Shown here: positions 21,073-63,139 of the stretch, piece after piece | Numbering within the stretch: position 1 is the stretch's first letter | How the letters are laid out: each line of letters starts with the position of its first letter | Assembly: GCA_965204035.1 (NCBI GenBank) | Contig: OZ241964.1 | Coordinates: 847,511-911,510 of the forward strand | Reading direction: 5' to 3' | Length of the DNA stretch: 64,000 bases | Source: Thermodesulfobacteriota bacterium | Lineage (GTDB): Bacteria; Desulfobacterota_D; UBA1144; Nemesobacterales; Nemesobacteraceae | Position numbers and translations under genes: made by a program | Notes under the pieces: model-generated | Database searches by the model: none | Told to the model about the DNA's origin: nothing | The model's input: the letters and a program-made list of their open reading frames with translations, nothing else

Positions 21073-23268
21073 GTGAAAAAAAAGAAAGAGTTTATTTCGA
21101 CCTCGGGAAGCTACGGAAAAGCACGGGGGTCTGCTGGCATCAGCACTGTCCAGGGTTTCTTATATATGCTTTTTCTGGCGTGCTCCATGCTTTTTCTGGC
21201 AGGTGGCTGCGGGGGCGCTGGCGGCGATACGGGAGGAGGTCCTCCGGTCGATCCACCAGAGTTCCAAAATTCCTGCTCTCAGGATCAACGCGCCCCGCTT
21301 GTCCTGATTTTCGACCCATCCAACCAACGAGAGGAAGATCCAGACGGTGTGCTGAGGGTAACAGCAGCGCTTGACAGTCCGGCGCCTTCAGGGGGCACGA
21401 GGGTAACGGTTGACATAGAACTTAAAGACGACGAAGGAAACAGAATAGCCGGTCTTCGCGAGATTATTACCATAGCCGAGGGCGAAACTGCCGCCACCAG
21501 AGCCATAACGTTTACCACTGACCGGGCTATTTTCGAAGCAGTCAATACCATCGTTTTTTCTGCTGAAAGCGACAACCCGGTATTGCGCACCGAGTGCGCA
21601 TTAGAAAATCTGGCCGGACCCCCAAGCCGCCCCCCTTCAAACCGCCCGCCCACAAGGCCGAATCCGGTCCAACTTGAATTTCGTCCGAAGCAGCTTGGAA
21701 CCGCCAATCCGCCGGATAGCCAAAACTACCGGCGGACCGATGAATTTGACGGACATTACGGACTTGCGTCAATTTCCGCGGATGAAGCCTACATGCGTGG
21801 GTACTTTGGTCGGGGGGTGACCATCGCGATTGCTGAAGACGGCATGGATGCCAGTCACCCCGATCTTGTCGGCAGGGTCAGGGACAAGTGGCATATCCGC
21901 AACCGAAACGCGGTAGTGGGAGAAACCTGCGGAGAGGGGGGGGGGGTGACAGGAGGGATCTGTACGGTGCCAGGTGCGGGCCATGGCACGTATGTCGCAT
22001 TGATAGCTGCGGGGGCAAGTGGAAATGGGAATCCGGGTGACACGTTCGAGATAACACTCGACGGAGGTTCTTCCGTAGTTCGCACTGGAAATGTCCATGG
22101 TGTCGCGCCGCAGGCCTCGATAACGTCAATATCCATGTCCGGCGGCGCAGAACCTGGAGAGGCAGTTGACTATGCGGTCAGAAGCGATGTTCAGGTACTC
22201 AATTTCAGCATAGGGCTCCGGGCTCCTCCTACCCTTTCTGCTCCTGCTTTCTGCCAATACGGTAGATACGACGGCAAAGATGGAGTATGGCTTACCTGTA
22301 AAAGTTTTCCGTATTTCAGGCCGCTTCTTGTTGAAGATCTGGGCAGCTATACAAGTCGTCTGACAGGAGAGTTTGCCGATATGGCTATGACGCTTGAAGG
22401 TGCGGATATTGTCCTTGTGTGGGCGGCCGGCAACGATGGGTGGAATTCTGAAAGCGATTTCCGTGTTCCAATGTGCGGGAAAAATCGCATTAAGCCCGAT
22501 GAGAGAGGATGTCCGCTTGGGGAATTGGATACCACGAAACAGGACTTCATGGAGAACTTCAAGTGGATTTACGATGCGGACAATCCCGAAAACACGGTTT
22601 CGTTCAGGGAGATGTGGGGGACGGAATGCGGGGAGGACAACTGCATTGAGTACAACTCCCCGGGAGGATGGAAAGAGGCTCCCAGATTTGAGCCCGAATT
22701 GCTGGGGAAATGGCTTGTGGTTGCTGCGTCCGATGAGAACGGCAGAATCGCGGATTTTTCCAACGGATGCGGCGCTGCTAGGAACTGGTGTCTTGTAGCG
22801 CCGGGGGACAGCCTCACGGTTAATCCCCCCGGTGAGGAAGGAATTGACGGCACCTCTTTTGCCGCTCCCATGGTGAGCGGAGCGCTTGCGGTGCTCAAGA
22901 GCCGGTTCCGCGATATGCCGATGGAGGTTATACATGCCATACTGCTAGTTTCTGCGGATCCCGTGGGGGAGCGTGAAATGAATCCCGAAAAGCCGGATCC
23001 GGTCTATGGCTGGGGAAGGTTGAATCTTGGAAGGGCTATTGCTCTTCAGGGAAATGTCAGGCTTCCGTACTCTGTGCCTGATATGGCCGGGGCGATGCGG
23101 GGAATTTCTCCGGGAGGCTACCGCTCCGCTTTGGTTTCCGCCTTCGCCTCGGCGGGCGCTGGTCAGGGCGGCAGCCTGTACAGGGGGCAATGCGCGTCGC
23201 CGTATGAAATTATCCGGCGATATCGATTGGAACTTACAGCTTCCAGGTTTTGGCGCGCGTTTGGATAG
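21073..23268 (+). CDS. S8 subtilisin-like serine protease, predicted lipoprotein
   Basis: Lipobox-like LAGGC, IAIAEDG, HGTYVA, WAAGND, GTSFAAPMVSG and YGWGRLNL. Confidence 0.88.
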   Translation: MKKKKEFISTSGSYGKARGSAGISTVQGFLYMLFLACSMLFLAGGCGGAGGDTGGGPPVDPPEFQNSCSQDQRAPLVLIFDPSNQREEDPDGVLRVTAALDSPAPSGGTRVTVDIELKDDEGNRIAGLREIITIAEGETAATRAITFTTDRAIFEAVNTIVFSAESDNPVLRTECALENLAGPPSRPPSNRPPTRPNPVQLEFRPKQLGTANPPDSQNYRRTDEFDGHYGLASISADEAYMRGYFGRGVTIAIAEDGMDASHPDLVGRVRDKWHIRNRNAVVGETCGEGGGVTGGICTVPGAGHGTYVALIAAGASGNGNPGDTFEITLDGGSSVVRTGNVHGVAPQASITSISMSGGAEPGEAVDYAVRSDVQVLNFSIGLRAPPTLSAPAFCQYGRYDGKDGVWLTCKSFPYFRPLLVEDLGSYTSRLTGEFADMAMTLEGADIVLVWAAGNDGWNSESDFRVPMCGKNRIKPDERGCPLGELDTTKQDFMENFKWIYDADNPENTVSFREMWGTECGEDNCIEYNSPGGWKEAPRFEPELLGKWLVVAASDENGRIADFSNGCGAARNWCLVAPGDSLTVNPPGEEGIDGTSFAAPMVSGALAVLKSRFRDMPMEVIHAILLVSADPVGEREMNPEKPDPVYGWGRLNLGRAIALQGNVRLPYSVPDMAGAMRGISPGGYRSALVSAFASAGAGQGGSLYRGQCASPYEIIRRYRLELTASRFWRAFG
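21936..21946 (+). repeat. G11 homopolymer inside the S8 protease CDS (currently in frame)
   Basis: ggagaGGGGGGGGGGGtgac, read as GEGGGVT. Confidence 0.85.
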
Positions 23269-28025: not shown

Positions 28026-28058
28026 TTGACAAAATGGGGGGGGGTAGAATGGTATACT
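28026..28058 (+). promoter_or_regulatory. Sigma70-type promoter elements with a G9 tract in the spacer
   Basis: TTGACA (28026-31), AAAT, G9 (28036-44), TAGAAT (28045-50), plus an extended TGnTATACT (28050-58), upstream of CDS 28109. Confidence 0.6.
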
Positions 28059-28108: not shown

Positions 28109-31100
28109 ATGCTCTTATCCGGGAACATTGACAGAAGATCTATTCTTGCTTTGTTTGGAATAAGGTCAGGTGCGATGTCATTTTTTATTGCTGGCGTGCT
28201 TGTCCTCGTTCTGATTCTGGTCGGGTGTGGCGGTGACACCACGCCTTCCCAATCTCCCGATCCTGACAATCCTCCGCACATGGGCCCTGAACCCGATGAT
28301 CCATCGCCGGAGGGCCCCGACCCCGATGTTCCGTCGCCAGAGGATACTGACCCACCCCCGCCCCAACCCGGGATATACACGACACGTCTGGATCAATCCA
28401 TCACCTTTGACATGCAGGGCAGCGATCCTCTGAGTGACCGGATTCTGAGGCAATCACAGCAGGGGACGGTGGTTTTGAATGCCGACGGCTCCGTTACCTA
28501 CTCGCCCGTACCCGGGGCTTCGGGAGAAGACAGCTTCGAAATTGAAATTAACGGAAGCCCGAGGGAGATTACCATTTACAACAATCTCGCTTACGAAGGC
28601 CAGATTGAAGGCGGGGTGAACTCCTCCGGCAACGTTGAAGTGCTGTTAACTGGGGACGGCGTATTGGAAACCGCATCGCCGGACGCTTCCGGCAGGTTCA
28701 GGTTCTATGGGTTGGAGGACGGTGACTATGTCGTCAAGGTGCGCAAAGCGGGCTACACGTCGTCGCTTGCCCGGGCGTTCAGCCTTGATATCGGGCAGCA
28801 TGATCCTTTGCATGACAGGATCGACCGATTTGTTCTGGAAGCGATCGATTCAGATACCTTTGTCTATCACTGGGAAGAAGATCAGAGTACGGCCGGCTAT
28901 GATTACGCGGCCCATGTGAACCAACCCGTGGTCGTGGAGTTTCTGGATGAGGAGGTTGAGGTGGTCAGCGAAGCGTCAGCCGGCCAGCTCCATCATGACT
29001 ACAACATCTTGCTGGTCGATTCGGAAGACGGTTCATGGACACAAGAGCATGCCTATCGCCTTCTCGAAACCATGAAGTCCATCCCGCAGAAGCTGCGGGA
29101 CCCCCATAAGGAACAAAGCCTCCCCGCCAGCAGGTGGCTTCTTACTTCCGACCACCTGGAGGACGACATCCGGATTACACATCATGAAGGCGGAGACCAC
29201 AGGACCGTTCTCATTTCCGAAGATGCCTTCGTCAATGCCAGCCCCCGGATCGCCAGGGTTGAAGGCAAGCGAGGAGTCTACTACTCACAACGTCTGCACC
29301 ACGCGCTGGTGCGCTTCGTCACGAACAACGGCAGGGATGAAACGGCGTACGAAGAGATTTTCCGGTTGCGTTACGGCGTCACGACCCTCATACCGGATTA
29401 TGCCCAGCTCACCAGTTCCACCACTAACGAATCCGCGTCGCGCTTTCAGAAATTCCATCCCGAAGAAATCGTCCAATTGATCAATATGTTTGAGGAAATG
29501 CCCAGGGGGATGCACAAACTGCCTGAGCTGCGGTATCTGGTGCGGCGCTTGGACGGCACGCTGCACCCTATATATCCTGGTGCGCCTGCGGTGGCTTGGC
29601 CCGATTACGGCTATATCGAGTTCATGGAAAGCGGGTTCAGCGAATTTTCCCCCGCCTATGTCCATCGCCTCATCATTCATGAAAAGGCGCATTTCCTGTG
29701 GGCCCACCAGTTCGACGAGCAACTCAAGGAGGACTGGATTGAATTGGGCGGCTGGTACCACGACCCGGAAAGCTCAAGTGGCTGGTCGACGACCAAACAA
29801 ACGGAGTTTGTCTCCGCCTACGCCCACTCAGAAAATCCAAATGAGGACATGGCCGAGTCCATCGCCTACTTCATCGTGAATCCGGACAGGCTGAAATCCC
29901 GAGCCATCGGCAAGTACGAGTTCGTCCGCGACCGCATCATGCAAGGTAACATCTACATCTCCACCATCCGGGAAGACCTGACCTTTGAGGTATATAACCT
30001 GTATCCGGACTACGTCTTTCCGGGCAAGATACGGCGAGTGGATATTGCGGTCGAAGGGGATCCGGAGGACGACAAAACAATCCATGTGGAAATCGAGTTG
30101 CATGCTCTGGATGAGGAGTTGGAAGGAGCGAAACACGCCTATACGCGCATTTTCAGCGAGACCGGCACCTTTGTGGACCTGTTCCTCTACCCAAGGGATG
30201 TGAACGGCAACCAGCTGACTCAAGGCACGGTACTCAAAGGCAGCTTCACTCTCAGCAAGCACGCCAAAGCCGGTTACTGGAGGCCGGACCAGATCGTTAT
30301 CACGGATGCGGTTGGCAACGAGCGGTTCGAAGGGGTGAACGACTTTGGGTGGAGACTCTACGTCGGCAACCTGCTGGAGGATGTCACCGCTCCTGAGTAT
30401 GTGGACAATACGGCGTCACTGAGCAAGAGCGTGACGACCCTTGAAGGCCGGGAGGTTCAGCTGATTCATGCAACCTGGGAGGTGGATGAGGACACGGCAA
30501 TGCGGGGGCAGGAACCTTGTTTCGCCACCCTGAATGACGAGTTTCTGGAAACCTACAGTTATAACGGATACGGTTCCTATGATTCAGCTAGCAGGTTGTG
30601 TCAGGTGGACTTTATGATGCCTCACTACATGCCGAGTTCCGTCTACAGGATGAATTACATCATCATGGTCGACGAGGCACTGAATAGCCGGGGAGTCTAC
30701 TTCACCCATCCTGGGCACGGCCTGCGTCCGGAGCAAAGTGTCGTGGATGAAACGCCCCGGCAAATTGAACTGGTAACCAGCAATCCGGACCTCAACCCCC
30801 CTGAGTTGGATATCAACGATATTCAGATCAATGCCGAGCCCACTTATCCGGATGCGCCCAATGGCGAAACTCTGGTGACGATCACCTTTCCCGTCAGGGA
30901 CAACATATCTGGTTATGAGATCGCACACATGATGCTACGCGACCCTCAGGGCATCGAGCATTATTTCTATCACCATGCTGAAGATCGCTCCCGATTATTT
31001 CCCGAAGGTGATCCCGCCCGTTGGGCCACTCAGACCCGAACGGTGCTTCTACCGCCGGGTTCTGCGCCCGGTATTTGGGGACTGGCCGAGATGACGATTC

Positions 31101-31174
31101 AGGACCGGGCGGGCAACTTCCGGCGCTACGATTTCACCGAGATCATCCACTTCGAAGTATTAGACGAGAGTTGA
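28109..31174 (+). CDS. Large lipoprotein with Ig/cadherin-like and carboxypeptidase-regulatory-like domains and a putative zinc metallopeptidase domain
   Basis: Lipobox LVGC, Pro/Asp linker, LNADGSVTYSP, GRFRFYGLEDGDYVVKV, IIHEKAH (HExxH) and SAYA..NPNEDMAES. Confidence 0.75.
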   Translation: MLLSGNIDRRSILALFGIRSGAMSFFIAGVLVLVLILVGCGGDTTPSQSPDPDNPPHMGPEPDDPSPEGPDPDVPSPEDTDPPPPQPGIYTTRLDQSITFDMQGSDPLSDRILRQSQQGTVVLNADGSVTYSPVPGASGEDSFEIEINGSPREITIYNNLAYEGQIEGGVNSSGNVEVLLTGDGVLETASPDASGRFRFYGLEDGDYVVKVRKAGYTSSLARAFSLDIGQHDPLHDRIDRFVLEAIDSDTFVYHWEEDQSTAGYDYAAHVNQPVVVEFLDEEVEVVSEASAGQLHHDYNILLVDSEDGSWTQEHAYRLLETMKSIPQKLRDPHKEQSLPASRWLLTSDHLEDDIRITHHEGGDHRTVLISEDAFVNASPRIARVEGKRGVYYSQRLHHALVRFVTNNGRDETAYEEIFRLRYGVTTLIPDYAQLTSSTTNESASRFQKFHPEEIVQLINMFEEMPRGMHKLPELRYLVRRLDGTLHPIYPGAPAVAWPDYGYIEFMESGFSEFSPAYVHRLIIHEKAHFLWAHQFDEQLKEDWIELGGWYHDPESSSGWSTTKQTEFVSAYAHSENPNEDMAESIAYFIVNPDRLKSRAIGKYEFVRDRIMQGNIYISTIREDLTFEVYNLYPDYVFPGKIRRVDIAVEGDPEDDKTIHVEIELHALDEELEGAKHAYTRIFSETGTFVDLFLYPRDVNGNQLTQGTVLKGSFTLSKHAKAGYWRPDQIVITDAVGNERFEGVNDFGWRLYVGNLLEDVTAPEYVDNTASLSKSVTTLEGREVQLIHATWEVDEDTAMRGQEPCFATLNDEFLETYSYNGYGSYDSASRLCQVDFMMPHYMPSSVYRMNYIIMVDEALNSRGVYFTHPGHGLRPEQSVVDETPRQIELVTSNPDLNPPELDINDIQINAEPTYPDAPNGETLVTITFPVRDNISGYEIAHMMLRDPQGIEHYFYHHAEDRSRLFPEGDPARWATQTRTVLLPPGSAPGIWGLAEMTIQDRAGNFRRYDFTEIIHFEVLDES

Positions 31175-57227: not shown

Positions 57228-57896
57228 ATGATAAAAGCGGTCATATTCGATTTTGACGGAATAATAGTTGACAGCGAGCCCCTGCACCTCAGAGCTTTTC
57301 AGAGAACTGTGGAGACTCTCGGATTAAAACTCTCGCCCACGGACTATTACTCGCGGTATCTTGCCTGCGATGACAAGACTTTTTTCAGAAAGTTCCTTGA
57401 GGATAACGGACAACAGGGCACGGAGGGGGAGATCGTGCGGCTTGTGGAAGAAAAAGGCGTCTGTTTTGAAGAAATGATGGGGGAGGGCATAAGAATTTTC
57501 CCTGGGGTTGTCGAGTTCCTGGAAACCATCCGGGGCAAATTTCATACGGCGATAGGTTCGGGCGCTTTAACCGGAGAGATTAATCTCATATTGGGGAGAA
57601 GGGGTCTTTCCGAGTTTTTCGATTTTGTAATAGGGGCCGATGATACGCAAAACCCCAAGCCGTCCCCCGAGGTCTACCTTAAATGTCTTGAGCAGCTCAG
57701 GAGAGATTATGACGGCGCTATAACCGCCGGGCAGTGCGTCGTGTTTGAAGATTCTCCCCACGGCGTTCTGGCGGCCAAAAGAGCCGGGATGAGATGTATC
57801 GGGATTACCAACTCGTGTTCCGGTGGCGAACTCAAGCTTGCTGACCGAGTAACAGAAAGTTTCTTTGAAGTAGTTGATGATTTCCCCGAATTTTGA
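57228..57896 (+). CDS. HAD-family phosphatase
   Basis: FDFDGIIVDS, KPSPEVY and FEDS motifs. Confidence 0.9.
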   Translation: MIKAVIFDFDGIIVDSEPLHLRAFQRTVETLGLKLSPTDYYSRYLACDDKTFFRKFLEDNGQQGTEGEIVRLVEEKGVCFEEMMGEGIRIFPGVVEFLETIRGKFHTAIGSGALTGEINLILGRRGLSEFFDFVIGADDTQNPKPSPEVYLKCLEQLRRDYDGAITAGQCVVFEDSPHGVLAAKRAGMRCIGITNSCSGGELKLADRVTESFFEVVDDFPEF

Positions 57897-58150
57897 ATAT
57901 AGTTCCACCTTCCCGCAGAATCTCTTTTAATGCTTTTCCCTTCTGCCTGCGTTTAAGCTTCTCTATCTTCTCCACCCAAAGCGCCTTAACTGTAAAGAGT
58001 GCGTTACATGACCGGTTCTTAAGCGCGCGAGTTGGCTGGCTGAACAGAGATTTGAAATGCACATTTATCTTGGTTACATTGATTGCATATACCTAGACTG
58101 ACCGACATATTACTGATATGTGAAGCCTGTAATCAGGAGGTAAGTGTTTC

Positions 58151-60531
58151 ATGAAGAATTCAGCCTATAGAAGCAACCCGGTTCAACGGGAACTTAGTTC
58201 TACCCCCCCCCCCATTTTTATTCCGTAGTTCATAATCAGAGAACATTTTCATGCTTTATCATAGTTGCGCTGCTCGGCGCGCTCTCGCCGTTCGCTGCCG
58301 CGCCCGCTGCGGCACAAACTCCCGCGGTCCAATGGGCCCAAACCGCTTATTCGGTAACGGAAACTGACGTCGATCAGTCCCTTGACCTCACGATCAATAT
58401 CAATCCGGTGATACCAGGACCCAACAACAGGGGCTTCTTAGTTTCTGTATTAGGTACCAGCACGGCCACCCAAGGGATCGATTGGGACTTTTCCACTGGA
58501 TGCAGTTCCTTGCCCCACAGTACCGGTACAGCGACTTGCACCCTGACCATCAAAGGGGACGATATCAGTGAGGGGAGCGAGACCATCGTACTGAGGTTGG
58601 TGGGCGTAGGCTCCGCCTACAATATAGGCAGTAATGCCGTAACCACAGTTACGATCACCGACGACGACCCGCCCACGGTCTCTCTTTCTGCGGCTCCCAA
58701 CCCTGTGACGGAGGGTTCATCCGTAACCGTAACGGCGACGCTGTCGTCGTCGGCGAGCAACGTAAGCATCCCGGTGACGCTCACGGCGGGCACGGCGGAG
58801 CCGGACGACTACGGCACGCTCACGTCCATCAGCATCTCAAGCGGCCAGACCTCAGGTACCGGCACGATAACCACGGCGCAGGACACGGACACAGAAGGCT
58901 ATGAGAGGTTCACGGTGTCTCTGGGCACGCTTCCCTCGGGGGTGATCGCCGGCACATCCAGTTCAGTTGTGATCAGGATCAGGGATGACGACGTAAGTTA
59001 TCCCCCGCCCGCCCTGCGGGAGCTCTCCCTTTTCGCCTCGGACAAAGGACGCTTCGCGAGCCGCGGGAATTATGTAGATCTTGAACCGACCTTCCACGAA
59101 GACACCCTCAACTACACGGTGCGCGTAGACGACTGGGCGGGGTATATAAGAGTGGGGGCCGAAGCCCGAGACAGTAACCCTGAAGACCCGACGAAGGTAT
59201 TCATCAACGGCGAACTGAAGGGACCTTCACCTTCACGTCCTCAAGATCCTGACCCCTCTGCTAGCTCCTCTATTTGGGTGGAACTGAAGGATGTCACGCC
59301 GATCGAAATCGTGGTGAGGAATCCGCTCGGGGAGTCGCAGACCTACACGGTGAGAGTGCTTCGGGGCAGTGCCGAGGTATCTCCCGCGCAGACTCCGCCC
59401 GATCAGCCCCCCAACTCCGAGCCTCCGCCCGATCAGACTCCGACGACGGGAGGAAGCGGCACCCCGGGAGGCAGCGGTTCTCCTTCCGGTGGCGGAGGAG
59501 GCGGAGGTGAACCGCAACTGTCTTCAGACGCTTCCCTGAGCGGACTCCGCGTCTCTGAAGGAGACCTGATGTTCAGCCCCGGGACGCGGGACTACGAAGT
59601 GACGGTGGGTCTTGAGGTAAGCGAACTCTCACTCACCCCAGAGGCCGGTCACCCCGACGCGGAAATAGAGATGAACGGCGTCTCCGCGCAAAGCGGAGAG
59701 GAAACGCGGATTGATCTCGGGGAAGACGAAACCGTCTCGATAACTATAACGGTCACCGCTCCCGACGGAGAGACTGCGATAACCTACACGGTAAGGGTTA
59801 CCCGGGGGGAGGAGTGCGGGATAAACGACAAGGAGGCCCTCACAAGGTTCTACGGGGCCACGGGGGGAGACGCGTGGACAATGAAAGACAACTGGAACAC
59901 CGAAAATCCTCTCGGGGAGTGGTACGGAGTAAGCGCCGATGAAAACGAAAAAGTAATATCCCTTCTTCTGGCTGACAACAATCTTGAGGGAGAGATTCCC
60001 AGGGAGTTTCTGTGCCTCGCGGAACTCAAGGAACTCGCCCTCTGGGGCAACGGGGGGCTTTCGGGGCATGTACCCGAAAACCATACGCTGGCGACAGAGA
60101 GGGCCGCGCTTCTTTACATTGCGCGCGCGCTTTCGCTCAACGCCGTGTGGTTCGATACTTACGAAGACCCCTATTACGACTTCCCGGAGTGGCATTACGG
60201 GGTTACGACGGATGACGGAAGGGTGACTGGGCTTTCCTTCTCTGGGGAAGACATAAGCGGAGTGATTCCCGTAATTCTCTTAAGACAGCTAAAAGAGCTT
60301 GAGACTCTTGACCTTGAGTGCTCGGGCATCACCCTTGGCGGAGACGCGCCCGAGGGGGTTAAGGTAAAGGAGGGCTGCGAAGAGGAAGAGGACCTGCCGG
60401 GCGGAGGGGGAGGCTGCGCTCTCGGAGACCAGGGGAGCGGGGGAGCGCCAGGCATCCTGCTTCTGCTGCTTGTGGCTGTGGCGTACGGGAGAGGGGCTTT
60501 TCTGAAGGGGCGGCGCGGAAGAAACCTCTGA
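58151..60531 (+). CDS. Surface protein A (Calx-beta-like, cadherin-like beta-sandwich, LRR module, C-terminal anchor), frameshifted at a C11 tract
   Basis: AGGAGG RBS and ATG at 58151. The signal peptide IIVALLGALSPFAAAPAAA/QT is in the main frame upstream of the ORF-track start (58408). C12 or C9 would fuse the two frames. Confidence 0.75.
58203..58213 (+). repeat. C11 homopolymer in the 5' coding leader (OFF phase)
   Basis: ttctaCCCCCCCCCCCattttt; the ATG frame ends at TAG shortly afterwards (..STPPPIFIP*). Confidence 0.85.
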
Positions 60532-60837
60532 GAAGAGAGAATTCATCCGACAGGTAATCCGGGGATGTCGGGAAGCGGATTCGTTGCGGCGAAGCGCCGG
60601 GATTTTAACCGGCCGGCAAGTTTGAGGCGTGCGCGCTGTTGAGCACCCGCATATGTATCAAGGGTTTCCCCGAGTGTGAAAAAACTTCTGCCTCGGGATT
60701 TTCTGTTTCTGTTCAGAGCTTGACCGGATGCGGGAATTCTGAGAGGCGCCCGAAAGTCCTCGGGCGACCAATTTGAATTTATTCCCGCTTGCCGTTATAT
60801 TGGTGATCCAATGTTAGAAAGGAGGTTAGACAGAAAG

Positions 60838-63139
60838 ATGAACAAAACAGATAGAAATCCGTTACTGATGACTGAGAAAGGGGCTACCCCCCCCCCCATT
60901 TTGTCTCCCGCTAAGTTCTGATTCCCCCGGTTTTTCCCGCAAGAGCCCTAAGGCACTTTCCCTTTTTCCCGGATCGTCCTGCGGTCGGGCCGCGTCCGCG
61001 TGGCGCCGCCTCGCCCTCCTCCCCGTCCTCGCGCTGCTGGCGGGCGCGCTGTGCCTGTTCGAGGCCGCACCCGCCAAAGCGCAGACCGTGCCCGGCAGCA
61101 TGTCCGTCGATGGGTTCCACCCAATGGGACCCGGACGCATGAAGATCGCCGAGGGCACATCGATCACCTACGGCATCGTGATCCACCAGCCGCCGACCGC
61201 GGATCTGACCATCACGCCGCGACACCACAACGTCCGACCGGACGGCAGCGACTACCCCAACGTCGACACCAGTCTGCTCACGATCCACAACGCGGTCACC
61301 TGGAAAGCCAACCTCTCCAACCACTATGCCTCGGACTGGCAGCAGTCCAAATCGGTCAGGCTCACCGCGGTGGACGACAACGAGTGCAAGTCTCCGCCCG
61401 GCAACCGGTACTGGATCAGGCACCACGGCAGCGGCGGCGGTCCCAACTGGGGCGGGTGGGAGCGGCAGGACCGGCACCATGGCCTGGTGATTTCGATCGA
61501 AATCATCGACGACGACTGCAAATATCTGGCCGCTTCCCCGGGCCAGGTGTATCCGGAGGAGGGCGCCAGCGCGACCTACACCGTGCGTCTGAAGGAGCCG
61601 CTCGAGGACGCCGCGTACATTTCCCCGCGCATCAGCGTCCCCGGCGACAGCGACCCCGGCGCGATCACGGTCTCTCCCGAGCGGATCCGGGTCGAAGCGG
61701 GAGACACGAGCCCGCAAACGTTCACGGTCAGCGCCGGAAGGGACGCGAACTCCCGTAACGAGGTCCTGGTTGTCGACCACAGCGTCGACTCGCCGGAGGT
61801 CCCGGCGGATTACCTGGGCGCCCGGGTGACCGTCATTGTCCAGGACGAGCAGAACGCGGCGAGGAAGCAGGAGCGCGACCCGCTGACCGTGACCGGTCTT
61901 GCGCTCACGGCCGGTTCGGAGGCGGTGGCGCTGAGCCCGGCCTTCTCGACGAATGTGCTGTCGTACCGGGCGGAGGTTCCGGCGGGGACGACGAGCGTGT
62001 CGCTGGCGCCGCACTGGAGCGGCGGGGAGAGCGTGTTCGCGGGCTCGCGCCGGGGCGGCACGACCTTCACGCGCCCGGCGCGGGTGCGGCCCTCGGGGAC
62101 GGCGGTCGCGCTGGCGCTGGCGCCGGACGGCGGCGCGACCGAGCTGTGGGTGATGGCGAGCGGCGGTTCGGGCGGCATGACGACCTACCGCATCGAGGTG
62201 ACCGAGGCGCAGACTTCCCTCGCACAGACTCTGACGACGGGAGGAGACGGCACCACGGGCGGCGGTGGCGGTTCTCCTTCCGGTGGTGGCGGCGGGGGCG
62301 GAGCCCCTCCCACTGGCGGAGACAGTCCTTCGCCCGAAGAACCCCAAGAGCCTGAACAGACTGATGAGTGCGGAGATAACGACAGGGAAAACCTTGTGAG
62401 CTTCTACAACGCTACGGACGGAGACACCTGGCTTGAGAAAACAAACTGGAACTCCTCCGAACCTCTCGACCAGTGGTATGGAGTAGACACAGATGAAGAC
62501 GGAGAGATTGTATCCCTTCGTCTTGCGGATAACAATCTCTCCGGACAGATGCCGACAAGAGAACTTCTGTGTCTTAATGAAGACACGGAACTTAAGGAAC
62601 TTGCCCTCTGGGGCAACGAAGATCTCTTGGGAGATGAGCCGGAGGGGTTTGTGTTTGCCATTGAGAGAGCCGTGTTGAGAGACATAGCGGAAACGATTGA
62701 CCTTAACCCCGAGTGGTTTGAAGACTATGAAGACCACCTTTTTGACTTCGAGGACTGGCACGAGGGGGGAGTTATGACGGATGAGGAAGGAAGGGTGAGG
62801 GAGCTTGATTTCACCGAAGAAGGTATAACCGGAGAGATTCCGAGGAGTGTTTTTAAGCTTGAAAACCTCACAGTCATAAAGACGGGATGTGAAGTAACTC
62901 TTGAGGCTCCCGAGCCAGAGGGAGTGAGCGTGATGATGGCTGAAGACTGCCCGGAGGAGATGGAACCTGAAGACATGGAGGAAGGGGATACGTCAGCGTC
63001 CGGAGGCGGGGGCTGCGCCCTGGGTCAAGAGGATTCTTCTGTATCCGGCTTCGGCTTGTTCCTCGTGACTATTCTTGTCTTCGCGGCGCTTGTGAGAAAA
63101 AGGGTACTGGTTTCCCGTCTGGCTGGGAACAGGCTGTAA
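60838..63139 (+). CDS. Surface protein B (GC-rich beta-sandwich passenger, LRR module, C-terminal anchor), frameshifted at a C11 tract
   Basis: AAAGGAGGT RBS and ATG at 60838. The signal peptide RRLALLPVLALLAGALCLFEAAPAKA/QT is in the main frame upstream of 61088. C10 or C13 would fuse the two frames. Confidence 0.75.
60887..60897 (+). repeat. C11 homopolymer in the 5' coding leader (OFF phase)
   Basis: gctaCCCCCCCCCCCattttgtc; the ATG frame ends ..ATPPPILSPAKF*. Confidence 0.85.

Follow-up and report, generated by a model that had tools for sequence, protein, structure and literature searches.

Leader, tract and long frame of gene B

This study concerns two neighbouring genes, here called A and B, in a 64,000-nucleotide stretch of contig OZ241964.1 (the window; coordinates refer to it, and to its plus strand, unless stated otherwise). 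The genome belongs to an uncultured, sponge-associated member of Candidatus Dadabacteria and was analysed as a single contig of 2,009,148 bases with a guanine-plus-cytosine content (GC) of 51.5%; database entries under the name Candidatus Dadabacteria bacterium match a housekeeping protein encoded in the window, polynucleotide phosphorylase, at 90-92% identity. The pair A and B stands between a HAD-like gene (57228-57896) and katG (from 63540). Each of the two genes begins with a short leader that runs into a tract of eleven cytosines (C11) and is out of frame with the long open frame behind it, an arrangement that suggests an on/off switch set by the length of the tract.

The leader of gene B starts at ATG 60838, 12 nucleotides (nt) 3' of the ribosome-binding site AGGAGG (60820-60825), and translates as MNKTDRNPLLMTEKGATPPPILSPAKF. 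It consists of 16 codons, followed by ACC and three CCC codons across the C run; as read at C11 it spans 60838-60921, 27 codons and then the stop TGA (60919-60921). The tract counts exactly 11 C (60887-60897), begins 49 nt past the ATG and is followed directly by an A and a run of four T (60899-60902). The long frame (60896-63139) is closed on its upstream side by TGA TGA at 60866-60871 and stays open from 60896 to the stop at 63137-63139, that is for 747 codons without an internal stop. It encodes a long N-terminal region and a typical signal peptide, ..WRRLALLPVLALLAGALCLFEAAPAKA/QT, and its first ATG, GTG or TTG is GTG 61088, downstream of the signal peptide. Since none of these codons lies ahead of the signal peptide in the long frame, the leader ATG is the only usable start. 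The leader joins the long frame at C10 or C13, and at the assembled C11 it is one base off.

A promoter-like site, found by a consensus scan and a consensus match only, precedes the leader (TTGAAT, 17 nt, TATATT; 60773-60801); its boxes align in seven of the eight cassettes of this type in the genome (B-type, see below). Between the two genes lies a hairpin of 7 base pairs with a 6-nt loop (60747-60766), read from the sequence and the alignment, which is kept upstream of four of the eight B-type cassettes and is not among the entries of the terminator scan. Intergenic DNA, promoter, leader, tract and the first codons past the tract make up a portable 5' cassette (60560-60964). Three further loci in the genome match it at 88-90% identity, and another four match shorter parts of it.

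A 616-codon open frame runs antisense to gene B on the minus strand (60911-62761), through the high-GC part of the gene described below, and is most likely a by-product of GC. Frame length alone is therefore weak evidence in this region, and we dropped open-frame length as proof of the function of gene B.

Gene A and its resemblance to gene B

Gene A has its own promoter-like site (TTGAAA, 17 nt, TACATT; 58052-58080; again only a match to the consensus in the scan), an AGGAGG at 58135-58140, a start at ATG 58151 and a C11 tract (58203-58213) that begins 52 nt past the ATG. As read at C11 the leader has 25 codons and then TAG (58151-58228). The long frame (58198-60531), closed upstream by a TAG at 58195, is open to 60531 for 777 codons and joins the leader at C9 or C12. 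It encodes a signal peptide, a Calx-beta domain, two cadherin-like domains, a leucine-rich-repeat-like (LRR-like) C-terminal module and a Cys-containing hydrophobic tail with a basic end.

The first-pass annotation of this DNA had reported the start, tract, double stop and signal peptide of gene B, and each of its sequence statements was reproduced; the states in which A and B would be on, and the different distances from ATG to tract in the two genes, were confirmed as well. It had also called B a tandem paralogue of A. This description fits the last 243 or so residues, which are 45% identical and comprise the LRR-like module (assigned by eye) and a tail with Gly-Cys, hydrophobic and basic parts, and it fits the design of the leader, but it does not extend to the remainder: the DNA common to the two leaders is only about 19 nt around the tract, and the foreign middle of B is absent from A. 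That A and B each have a promoter-like site of their own fits independent switching.

A family of 17 genes with the same C-terminal module

A tblastn search of the genome with the C-terminal module of B (62342-63136) gave 19 hits, located in 17 genes, and in each of these the 5' end carries a leader with a poly-C tract. Two of these genes are in frame (genome positions 1469852, with C11, and 1583070, with C12), eight need a correction of -1 or +2, six need +1 or -2, and one leader (643092) is decoupled, being cut off from its gene by stops. In the out-of-frame members the frames behind the tract are open for 629 to 2562 codons.

Three types of leader occur in the family. The B-type, present at eight loci, ends in ..LLMTEKGA and its tract begins 49 nt past the ATG; in the A-type the tract begins 52 nt past the ATG; the third type has an A-like 5' half and a B-like 3' half. 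Tracts of the paralogous cassettes span C10 to C14, and in a second leader family lengths of C10, C11, C11, C12 and C13 are found between near-identical flanks.

When the eight B-type cassettes are aligned, the promoter-like boxes, the ribosome-binding site and the ATG are in register. In seven of them the part from the ATG to about 55 nt past the tract (GCAAG) varies in length at two sites only, the C run of 11 or 12 and the T run of 4, 5 or 6. Further on, the part coding for the signal peptide contains one more gap, of 2 nt, and the eighth cassette (1423890) has an extra insertion. The frame of a B-type gene follows a rule: it is in frame if C + T equals 2 modulo 3, gene B having 11 + 4.

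Larger blocks are duplicated too. The segment 59382-60964, which holds the 3' end of a family gene, intergenic DNA and the next leader, is 88.6% identical to genome positions 1584331-1585910, and 60339-60964 is 90.5% identical to 1469310-1469931. Duplication of such a unit of gene end, intergenic DNA and leader indicates that the tandem arrays grow or are homogenised by duplication or conversion across the junctions. Judged by these sequences, the family is built from three parts: first a portable cassette of promoter, leader and tract, then a passenger that can be exchanged, and last a C-terminal anchor module common to the members. By their predicted frames, most copies are silent in the assembled consensus.

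Poly-C tracts in the genome

The tracts of this family stand out in the genome-wide distribution of G/C runs, which counts 57 runs of length 7, 6 of length 8, 6 of length 9, 3 of length 10, 22 of length 11, 7 of length 12 and one each of 13, 14 and 16. Runs of at least 10 number 35, with a mode at 11, where 0.35 are expected from a log-linear fit to lengths 3-8. Runs of A/T fall monotonically with length and show no such hump. The excess of long G/C runs indicates that the tracts are a maintained feature of the genome. They sit in the 17 adhesin-like genes, in one DNA methyltransferase gene (C16) and in one restriction-modification gene (C11).

The methyltransferase gene has a DPPF motif, and its C16 run (genome 593576-593591) follows a 7-codon leader; in the assembly the gene is out of frame. 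It is a candidate phase-variable methyltransferase gene and could alter methylation genome-wide.

Other G runs lie in different settings. In the window, a G11 run (21936-21946) is in frame within a 731-codon subtilase (Peptidase_S8) gene (21073-23268), near codon 288, and may be a switch of another kind, by which the protease would be truncated. A G9 run (28036-28044) stands between TTGACA and TAGAAT boxes, 65 nt 5' of a 1021-codon Ig/cadherin-like gene (28109-31174), and similar G runs between promoter-like boxes are found elsewhere in the genome (163817, 422761, 749120 and 1282623). All are candidates for a switch in the promoter spacer.

Tract length in relatives and in public assemblies

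Runs of C10 or longer are present in 34 of the 36 genomes of the genus, at 0 to 112 per genome. High counts tend to occur in larger genomes assembled as a single contig (G017 with 112, G007 with 60, G004 with 43 and G021 with 41), and in the fragmented assemblies of the genus the tracts are often found at contig ends.

A DNA search with the leader of A gave a match in 8 of the 35 other genomes of the genus, and seven loci from six of these eight hold a tract-bearing A-type leader at 73-76% identity. The leader open reading frame (ORF) is the same in all seven, and in six the distance from the nearest ATG to the tract is 52 nt, the same as in A. Tract lengths are C9 (five loci), C11 and C14; four of the loci are out of frame and three in frame, with one of the three running past the end of its locus after 15 codons. 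With A they share the leader cassette only and not the flanks, so they are homologues of the cassette rather than syntenic orthologues of A. As far as can be read from these loci, the cassette is portable and its tract changes in length; they do not represent variation at A itself.

The leader of B is more restricted. In 40 other genomes of the genus and order, an 841-nt query for an orthologue of B gave two weak hits in its intergenic part and no real match, and a 201-nt query with its leader gave only matches of about 20 nt around tracts in the 35 other genomes of the genus. Residues 1-70 of an in-frame paralogue matched only the protein itself in the protein database. Two pattern scans of metagenomes, one for a B-type leader with a variable tract and one for the tract with its downstream flank, gave 0 matches each.

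Public sequencing runs that hold the locus were examined as assembled contigs. Tract A is crossed by two contigs (15,380 and 2,179 nt) from runs X1 and X2, which belong to one study, possibly of the sample from which this assembly came; both cross it without a gap and therefore carry C11. Tract B is spanned by none of the contig pieces listed. No RNA run was listed among those that contain the locus.

The middle of gene B is shared with other phyla

The composition of gene B changes sharply along its length. GC is 48% in the 300 bases at 60650-60949, rises to 63-77% across 61000-62300 and returns to about 50% past 62300. Behind the 5' cassette lies a signal-peptide piece of high-GC type (60986-61087), which homologous genes in other phyla carry at their 5' ends with 77-89% identity, and behind this a cassette of 63-77% GC (61092-62212) for three beta-sandwich domains, the last of them cadherin-like. 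The remaining part (62213-63139) encodes a Gly-rich linker and the LRR-like C-terminal module; the tail that follows combines a GGGGC motif with a hydrophobic stretch and a basic end.

In blastn searches the 61092-62212 cassette matched metagenome-assembled genomes (MAGs) of nine groups at 88-95.6% DNA identity and of a tenth at 79%, the groups being named after the titles of their records. Identity is 94.4-95.6% to MAGs titled Alphaproteobacteria, Candidatus Binatia, Nitrospirales, Candidatus Poriferihabitaceae, Gammaproteobacteria and unclassified bacterium; one Binatia locus (L062) has 92.3%. For Candidatus Rariloculaceae it is 90-92%, for Dehalococcoidia and Candidatus Poriferisodalis 88-89%, and for Vicinamibacterales 79%. 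Synonymous divergence (dS) of the cassette is 0.056-0.10 to the first groups and 0.16-0.21 to Dehalococcoidia, Poriferisodalis and Vicinamibacterales. The flanks of the loci in different phyla are mutually unrelated, the common piece being 1.1-3.3 kb inside a gene.

Within the genome, the cassette is present in three copies (B and the genes at 1466600 and 1589035) with 92-93% identity, and it was not found in the 40 other genomes of the same genus and order. Gene A has only 66-81% identity to pieces of the MAGs with the B cassette, and nothing comparable to it. High identity together with low dS across phyla indicates that the middle of B is a recent cross-phylum import behind a native switch. 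In this reconstruction from sequence gene B is a mosaic, put together from the native switch cassette (60560-60964), the high-GC signal-peptide piece, the imported three-domain module and a native linker and anchor. Further, the summed contig depth in run X2 is 7,900-42,000 over 60909-62324 and about 100-800 on either side; this fits many abundant carriers in the same community, although such depths mix organisms.

Tract-bearing homologues in other phyla

The whole cassette is held by 26 loci (L045-L070), at each of which roughly 6 kb were examined. In two Poriferisodalis MAGs the leader of a homologous gene is 16 codons long and closes with a G run and TAG. Over 6116 nt the two loci have 99.7% identity, and the sole gap between them is in this run, G21 in one (L067, 1987-2007) and G15 in the other (L068, 1993-2007), both out of frame. 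This is a direct strain polymorphism in a co-occurring lineage. A Dehalococcoidia MAG has a G11 run at the equivalent position (L069, 2041-2051), in frame.

Elsewhere, one Rariloculaceae locus has an internal in-frame C9, one Alphaproteobacteria whole-cassette locus an internal C8, and the Gammaproteobacteria locus L045 a C16 about 2.4 kb downstream of the match. No run of at least 9 was found in the roughly 6 kb of the whole-cassette loci of Alphaproteobacteria, Binatia, Nitrospirales, Poriferihabitaceae and the unclassified bacterium. Counted per genome, runs of C10 or more number 52 in Poriferisodalis, 30 in Dehalococcoidia, 17 in Rariloculaceae, 3 in Nitrospirales and 3 in Poriferihabitaceae.

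Predicted properties of the proteins

Gene B has a Pfam match to the Cadherin-like family PF12733 (26.5 bits against a gathering score of 24.2); gene A matches the same family with 89.8 bits, and Calx-beta (PF03160) with 30.3 bits against a gathering score of 27. Pfam gave no hit to the C-terminal module, with E values of up to 10 allowed. An AlphaFold model of the 61088-62200 product, made from a shallow alignment of 19 sequences, has three beta-sandwich domains and a mean predicted local distance difference test score of 73.7. A Foldseek search with the model of the B cassette returned only generic tandem Ig-like, Calx-beta and pilin folds at template modelling (TM) scores of 0.17-0.27, so no specific function is assigned to the cassette. 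Cadherin, LRR, fn3 and Calx-beta proteins are known to be enriched in sponge symbionts (PMC11706023).

The C-terminal tails (62960-63136 in B, 60370-60528 in A) have a Gly run, a Cys, a hydrophobic stretch and a basic end, and recur in the 17 genes. They were tried as JDVT-CTERM (NF033191), which gave 7.8-12 bits against a curated cut-off of 27, and as MYXO-CTERM (TIGR03901), with 10.2 bits against a curated cut-off of 20; both assignments were rejected. From its layout, the tail may be an undescribed sorting signal of the CTERM type.

Probable phase variation and alternative explanations

We propose that gene B undergoes translational phase variation by slipped-strand mispairing at the level of DNA, that is, that it is a simple-sequence contingency locus; we put the probability of this at roughly 75%. 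The leader ORF from ATG 60838, behind its own promoter, would run into the poly-C tract, and the frame of a secreted, membrane-anchored and adhesin-like protein would start only beyond it. During replication, slipped-strand mispairing would add or remove one C. At C10 or C13 the leader would be fused to the signal peptide and the protein made, and at C11, as assembled, translation would end after 27 codons and leave gene B silent. Gene A, with its own promoter, leader and tract, should switch independently of B.

The proposal builds on observations: the anatomy of the genes, their frames, the genome-wide excess of tracts and the differences in length among paralogues and species. It draws further support from the link of the tract to all 17 family genes, from the presence of both frame states and of both directions of correction, from the tracts found across the genus, and from the difference between G21 and G15 in the two Poriferisodalis MAGs. 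Characteristic of contingency loci are a homopolymer at the 5' end, coupling of the frame to a single base and a genome-wide excess of tracts in surface and restriction-modification genes, and all of these are found here. We infer frequent changes of tract length in living cells, export of the in-frame protein, and a role of the variation in altering the cell surface that host or phage encounter.

Several observations weigh against this explanation. Seven of the eight B-type cassettes have exactly C11, less spread than hypermutable tracts should have if the mode is not fixed by a mutational equilibrium or by the consensus calling of the assembly. In-frame genes are few, 2 of the 16 coupled ones where chance would give one in three (P = 0.059, calculated for non-independent loci), which is also what obligatory recoding predicts. 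A narrow mode with most genes off would also arise from a population with few genes on per cell, of which the assembly reports the most frequent state, or from leaky transcriptional or ribosomal slippage that gives low expression. No variation in length at tract A or B was seen in the contigs of the two runs. The first-pass annotation had suggested independent stochastic switching of the two genes; its structural reasoning stands, with the opposite corrections found family-wide and the separate promoter-like sites, but the heterogeneity in length was not observed at the locus in contigs. Further, mutS and mutL are each present in 35 of the 36 genomes of the genus, which rules out loss of mismatch repair as the cause of tract instability. 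Finally, the ratio of non-synonymous to synonymous divergence (dN/dS) of the B cassette is 0.48-1.22, so that purifying selection on this copy is not demonstrated.

The out-of-frame arrangement could instead be the working state, read by recoding at low expression, with RNA polymerase slipping on the 11-C run or tRNA-Pro slipping on CCC-C. A fixed share of the products would then be of full length. Long homopolymers and CCC-C sites do slip in transcription and in translation. The modal C11 is out of frame for most family members, 14 of 16 being off, and most tracts are exactly 11 long, as this explanation would have it. However, with eight genes needing -1 or +2 and six needing +1 or -2, no single direction serves all; two family members and several leaders of other species are in frame in the DNA; near-identical cassettes differ in tract length; and a search of 57800-61200 at E up to 1 returned no relevant Rfam match. 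A programmed frameshift or slippage site should have the same arrangement and direction in all homologues, whereas both directions and in-frame members occur in the family and both states occur in other species. Recoding as the main route of expression is unlikely in our view, and some leaky slippage on top of DNA switching is compatible with the data.

It is also conceivable that the tract is real and its state called wrongly, the true mode being C10 or the population mixed, in which case B would be in frame. Current sequencing is at its weakest with homopolymers of this length, public contigs break near tract B with none of the listed pieces spanning it, tracts are often at contig ends in the fragmented genomes of the genus, and 22 of the 35 long tracts are equal in length. 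A uniform miscall, on the other hand, cannot bring A (C9 or C12) and B (C10 or C13) into frame together, nor the eight and six family members with opposite corrections. C11 at tract A is found without a gap in two contigs from two runs, and the same assembly calls lengths of 10 to 16 elsewhere. We see only a small chance of such a miscall, and it would touch the present state of the gene and not the nature of the switch. The argument from opposite corrections was made for A and B in the first-pass annotation; it holds and extends to the family. Taken together with the in-frame members and the different lengths in near-identical cassettes, it means that neither one sequencing bias nor one fixed programmed frameshift accounts for the tracts.

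Decay, in which the frameshifts are ordinary inactivating mutations of a family that is being lost, would be consistent with 14 of 16 copies out of frame, with the decoupled leader at 643092, with a leader at 262678 that has no long frame behind it, and with a dN/dS of the B cassette near 0.75. Against this, the tract is the site of the sole lesion in every out-of-frame copy, the frames behind it being open over the lengths given above. The frameshifts occur at one conserved position in a conserved cassette whose promoter-like boxes, ribosome-binding site and ATG are retained, and the length of the leader ORF is kept across species. Additional inactivating lesions, named in the first-pass annotation as a sign of simple pseudogenisation, were looked for in the long frames of A and B, and no further stop was found. 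We regard decay as very improbable.

Possible role of the proposed switches in sponge symbionts

On/off switches of surface genes by mutation are textbook knowledge for pathogens that face adaptive immunity. To our knowledge such switches are hardly known from beneficial symbionts of animals without adaptive immunity. That a 2-Mb symbiont has poly-C tracts at 17 adhesin-like genes, at one methyltransferase gene and at one restriction-modification gene suggests strong and fluctuating selection on the surface of sponge symbionts, for which host recognition and phagocytosis, or phage, are possible sources. A switch that drives a module about 95% identical in DNA to genes of unrelated phyla would tie the escape of symbionts from being eaten to the spread of "eukaryote-like" adhesion domains.

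A wider scenario, which is tentative and on balance doubtful, is that sponge bacteria of many phyla share a pool of recently exchanged adhesin modules, and that Dadabacteria plug such modules between a poly-C switch cassette and an anchor. The outcome would be a system resembling antigenic variation in a mutualist, with most copies silent and a one-base slip able to turn any of them on. As the homologues in Poriferisodalis and Dehalococcoidia have poly-G leaders of their own, display of shared modules under the control of a tract would, if true, be convergent, and might be a community-wide strategy against host phagocytosis or phage.

Comparison with known systems

A full-text search of one literature collection found no paper on phase variation in Dadabacteria, nor on homopolymeric tracts or phase-variable genes of sponge symbionts. 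Homopolymeric tracts are the subject of a survey across prokaryotes (PMC2831843). What we describe is probably phase variation of a known design, in a lineage where it is not in print.

The closest likeness in anatomy is to Neisseria pilC and similar genes, which have a poly-G/C run in the region coding for the signal peptide. In both cases the homopolymer lies just past the start, ahead of or inside the signal peptide, and its length sets the frame of a surface gene; several paralogues switch separately in the known systems and are predicted to do so here. In contrast to pilC, there is a separate leader of 16-17 codons here, ahead of an unusually long N-terminal region, and one cassette design serves 17 genes. 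Further, the organism is not a pathogen but an uncultured, sponge-living Candidatus Dadabacteria.

At the level of the genome, the tracts resemble the poly-G phasome of Campylobacter jejuni, with tens of G/C tracts (about 9-13 long) in a small genome, concentrated in genes for surface structures and restriction-modification, and with a narrow mode. Campylobacter is not known to have a working MutS/MutL system, whereas mutS and mutL are present here; also, most tracts here belong to one portable family of leader cassettes and not to unrelated genes.

The C-terminal tails recall the MYXO-CTERM and JDVT-CTERM signals, which combine a Gly/Cys motif with a hydrophobic stretch and a basic end at the extreme C-terminus of secreted multi-domain proteins. 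The tails of the family differ in that they score far below the curated cut-offs.

The variable lipoproteins of Mycoplasma and the opa genes of Neisseria are multigene families for surface variation with mostly silent copies. The present family is similar in its many paralogues, a common part for export and anchoring, variable exposed parts, few copies predicted to be on at a time, and mosaic exchange. Unlike them, it lacks both an invertase and a single expression site; promoter and tract are individual to each copy, and the passengers come partly from other phyla. The present analysis adds the complete association of the switch with a family of 17 genes, the rule that couples the C and T runs, and the cross-phylum origin of the passenger of gene B.

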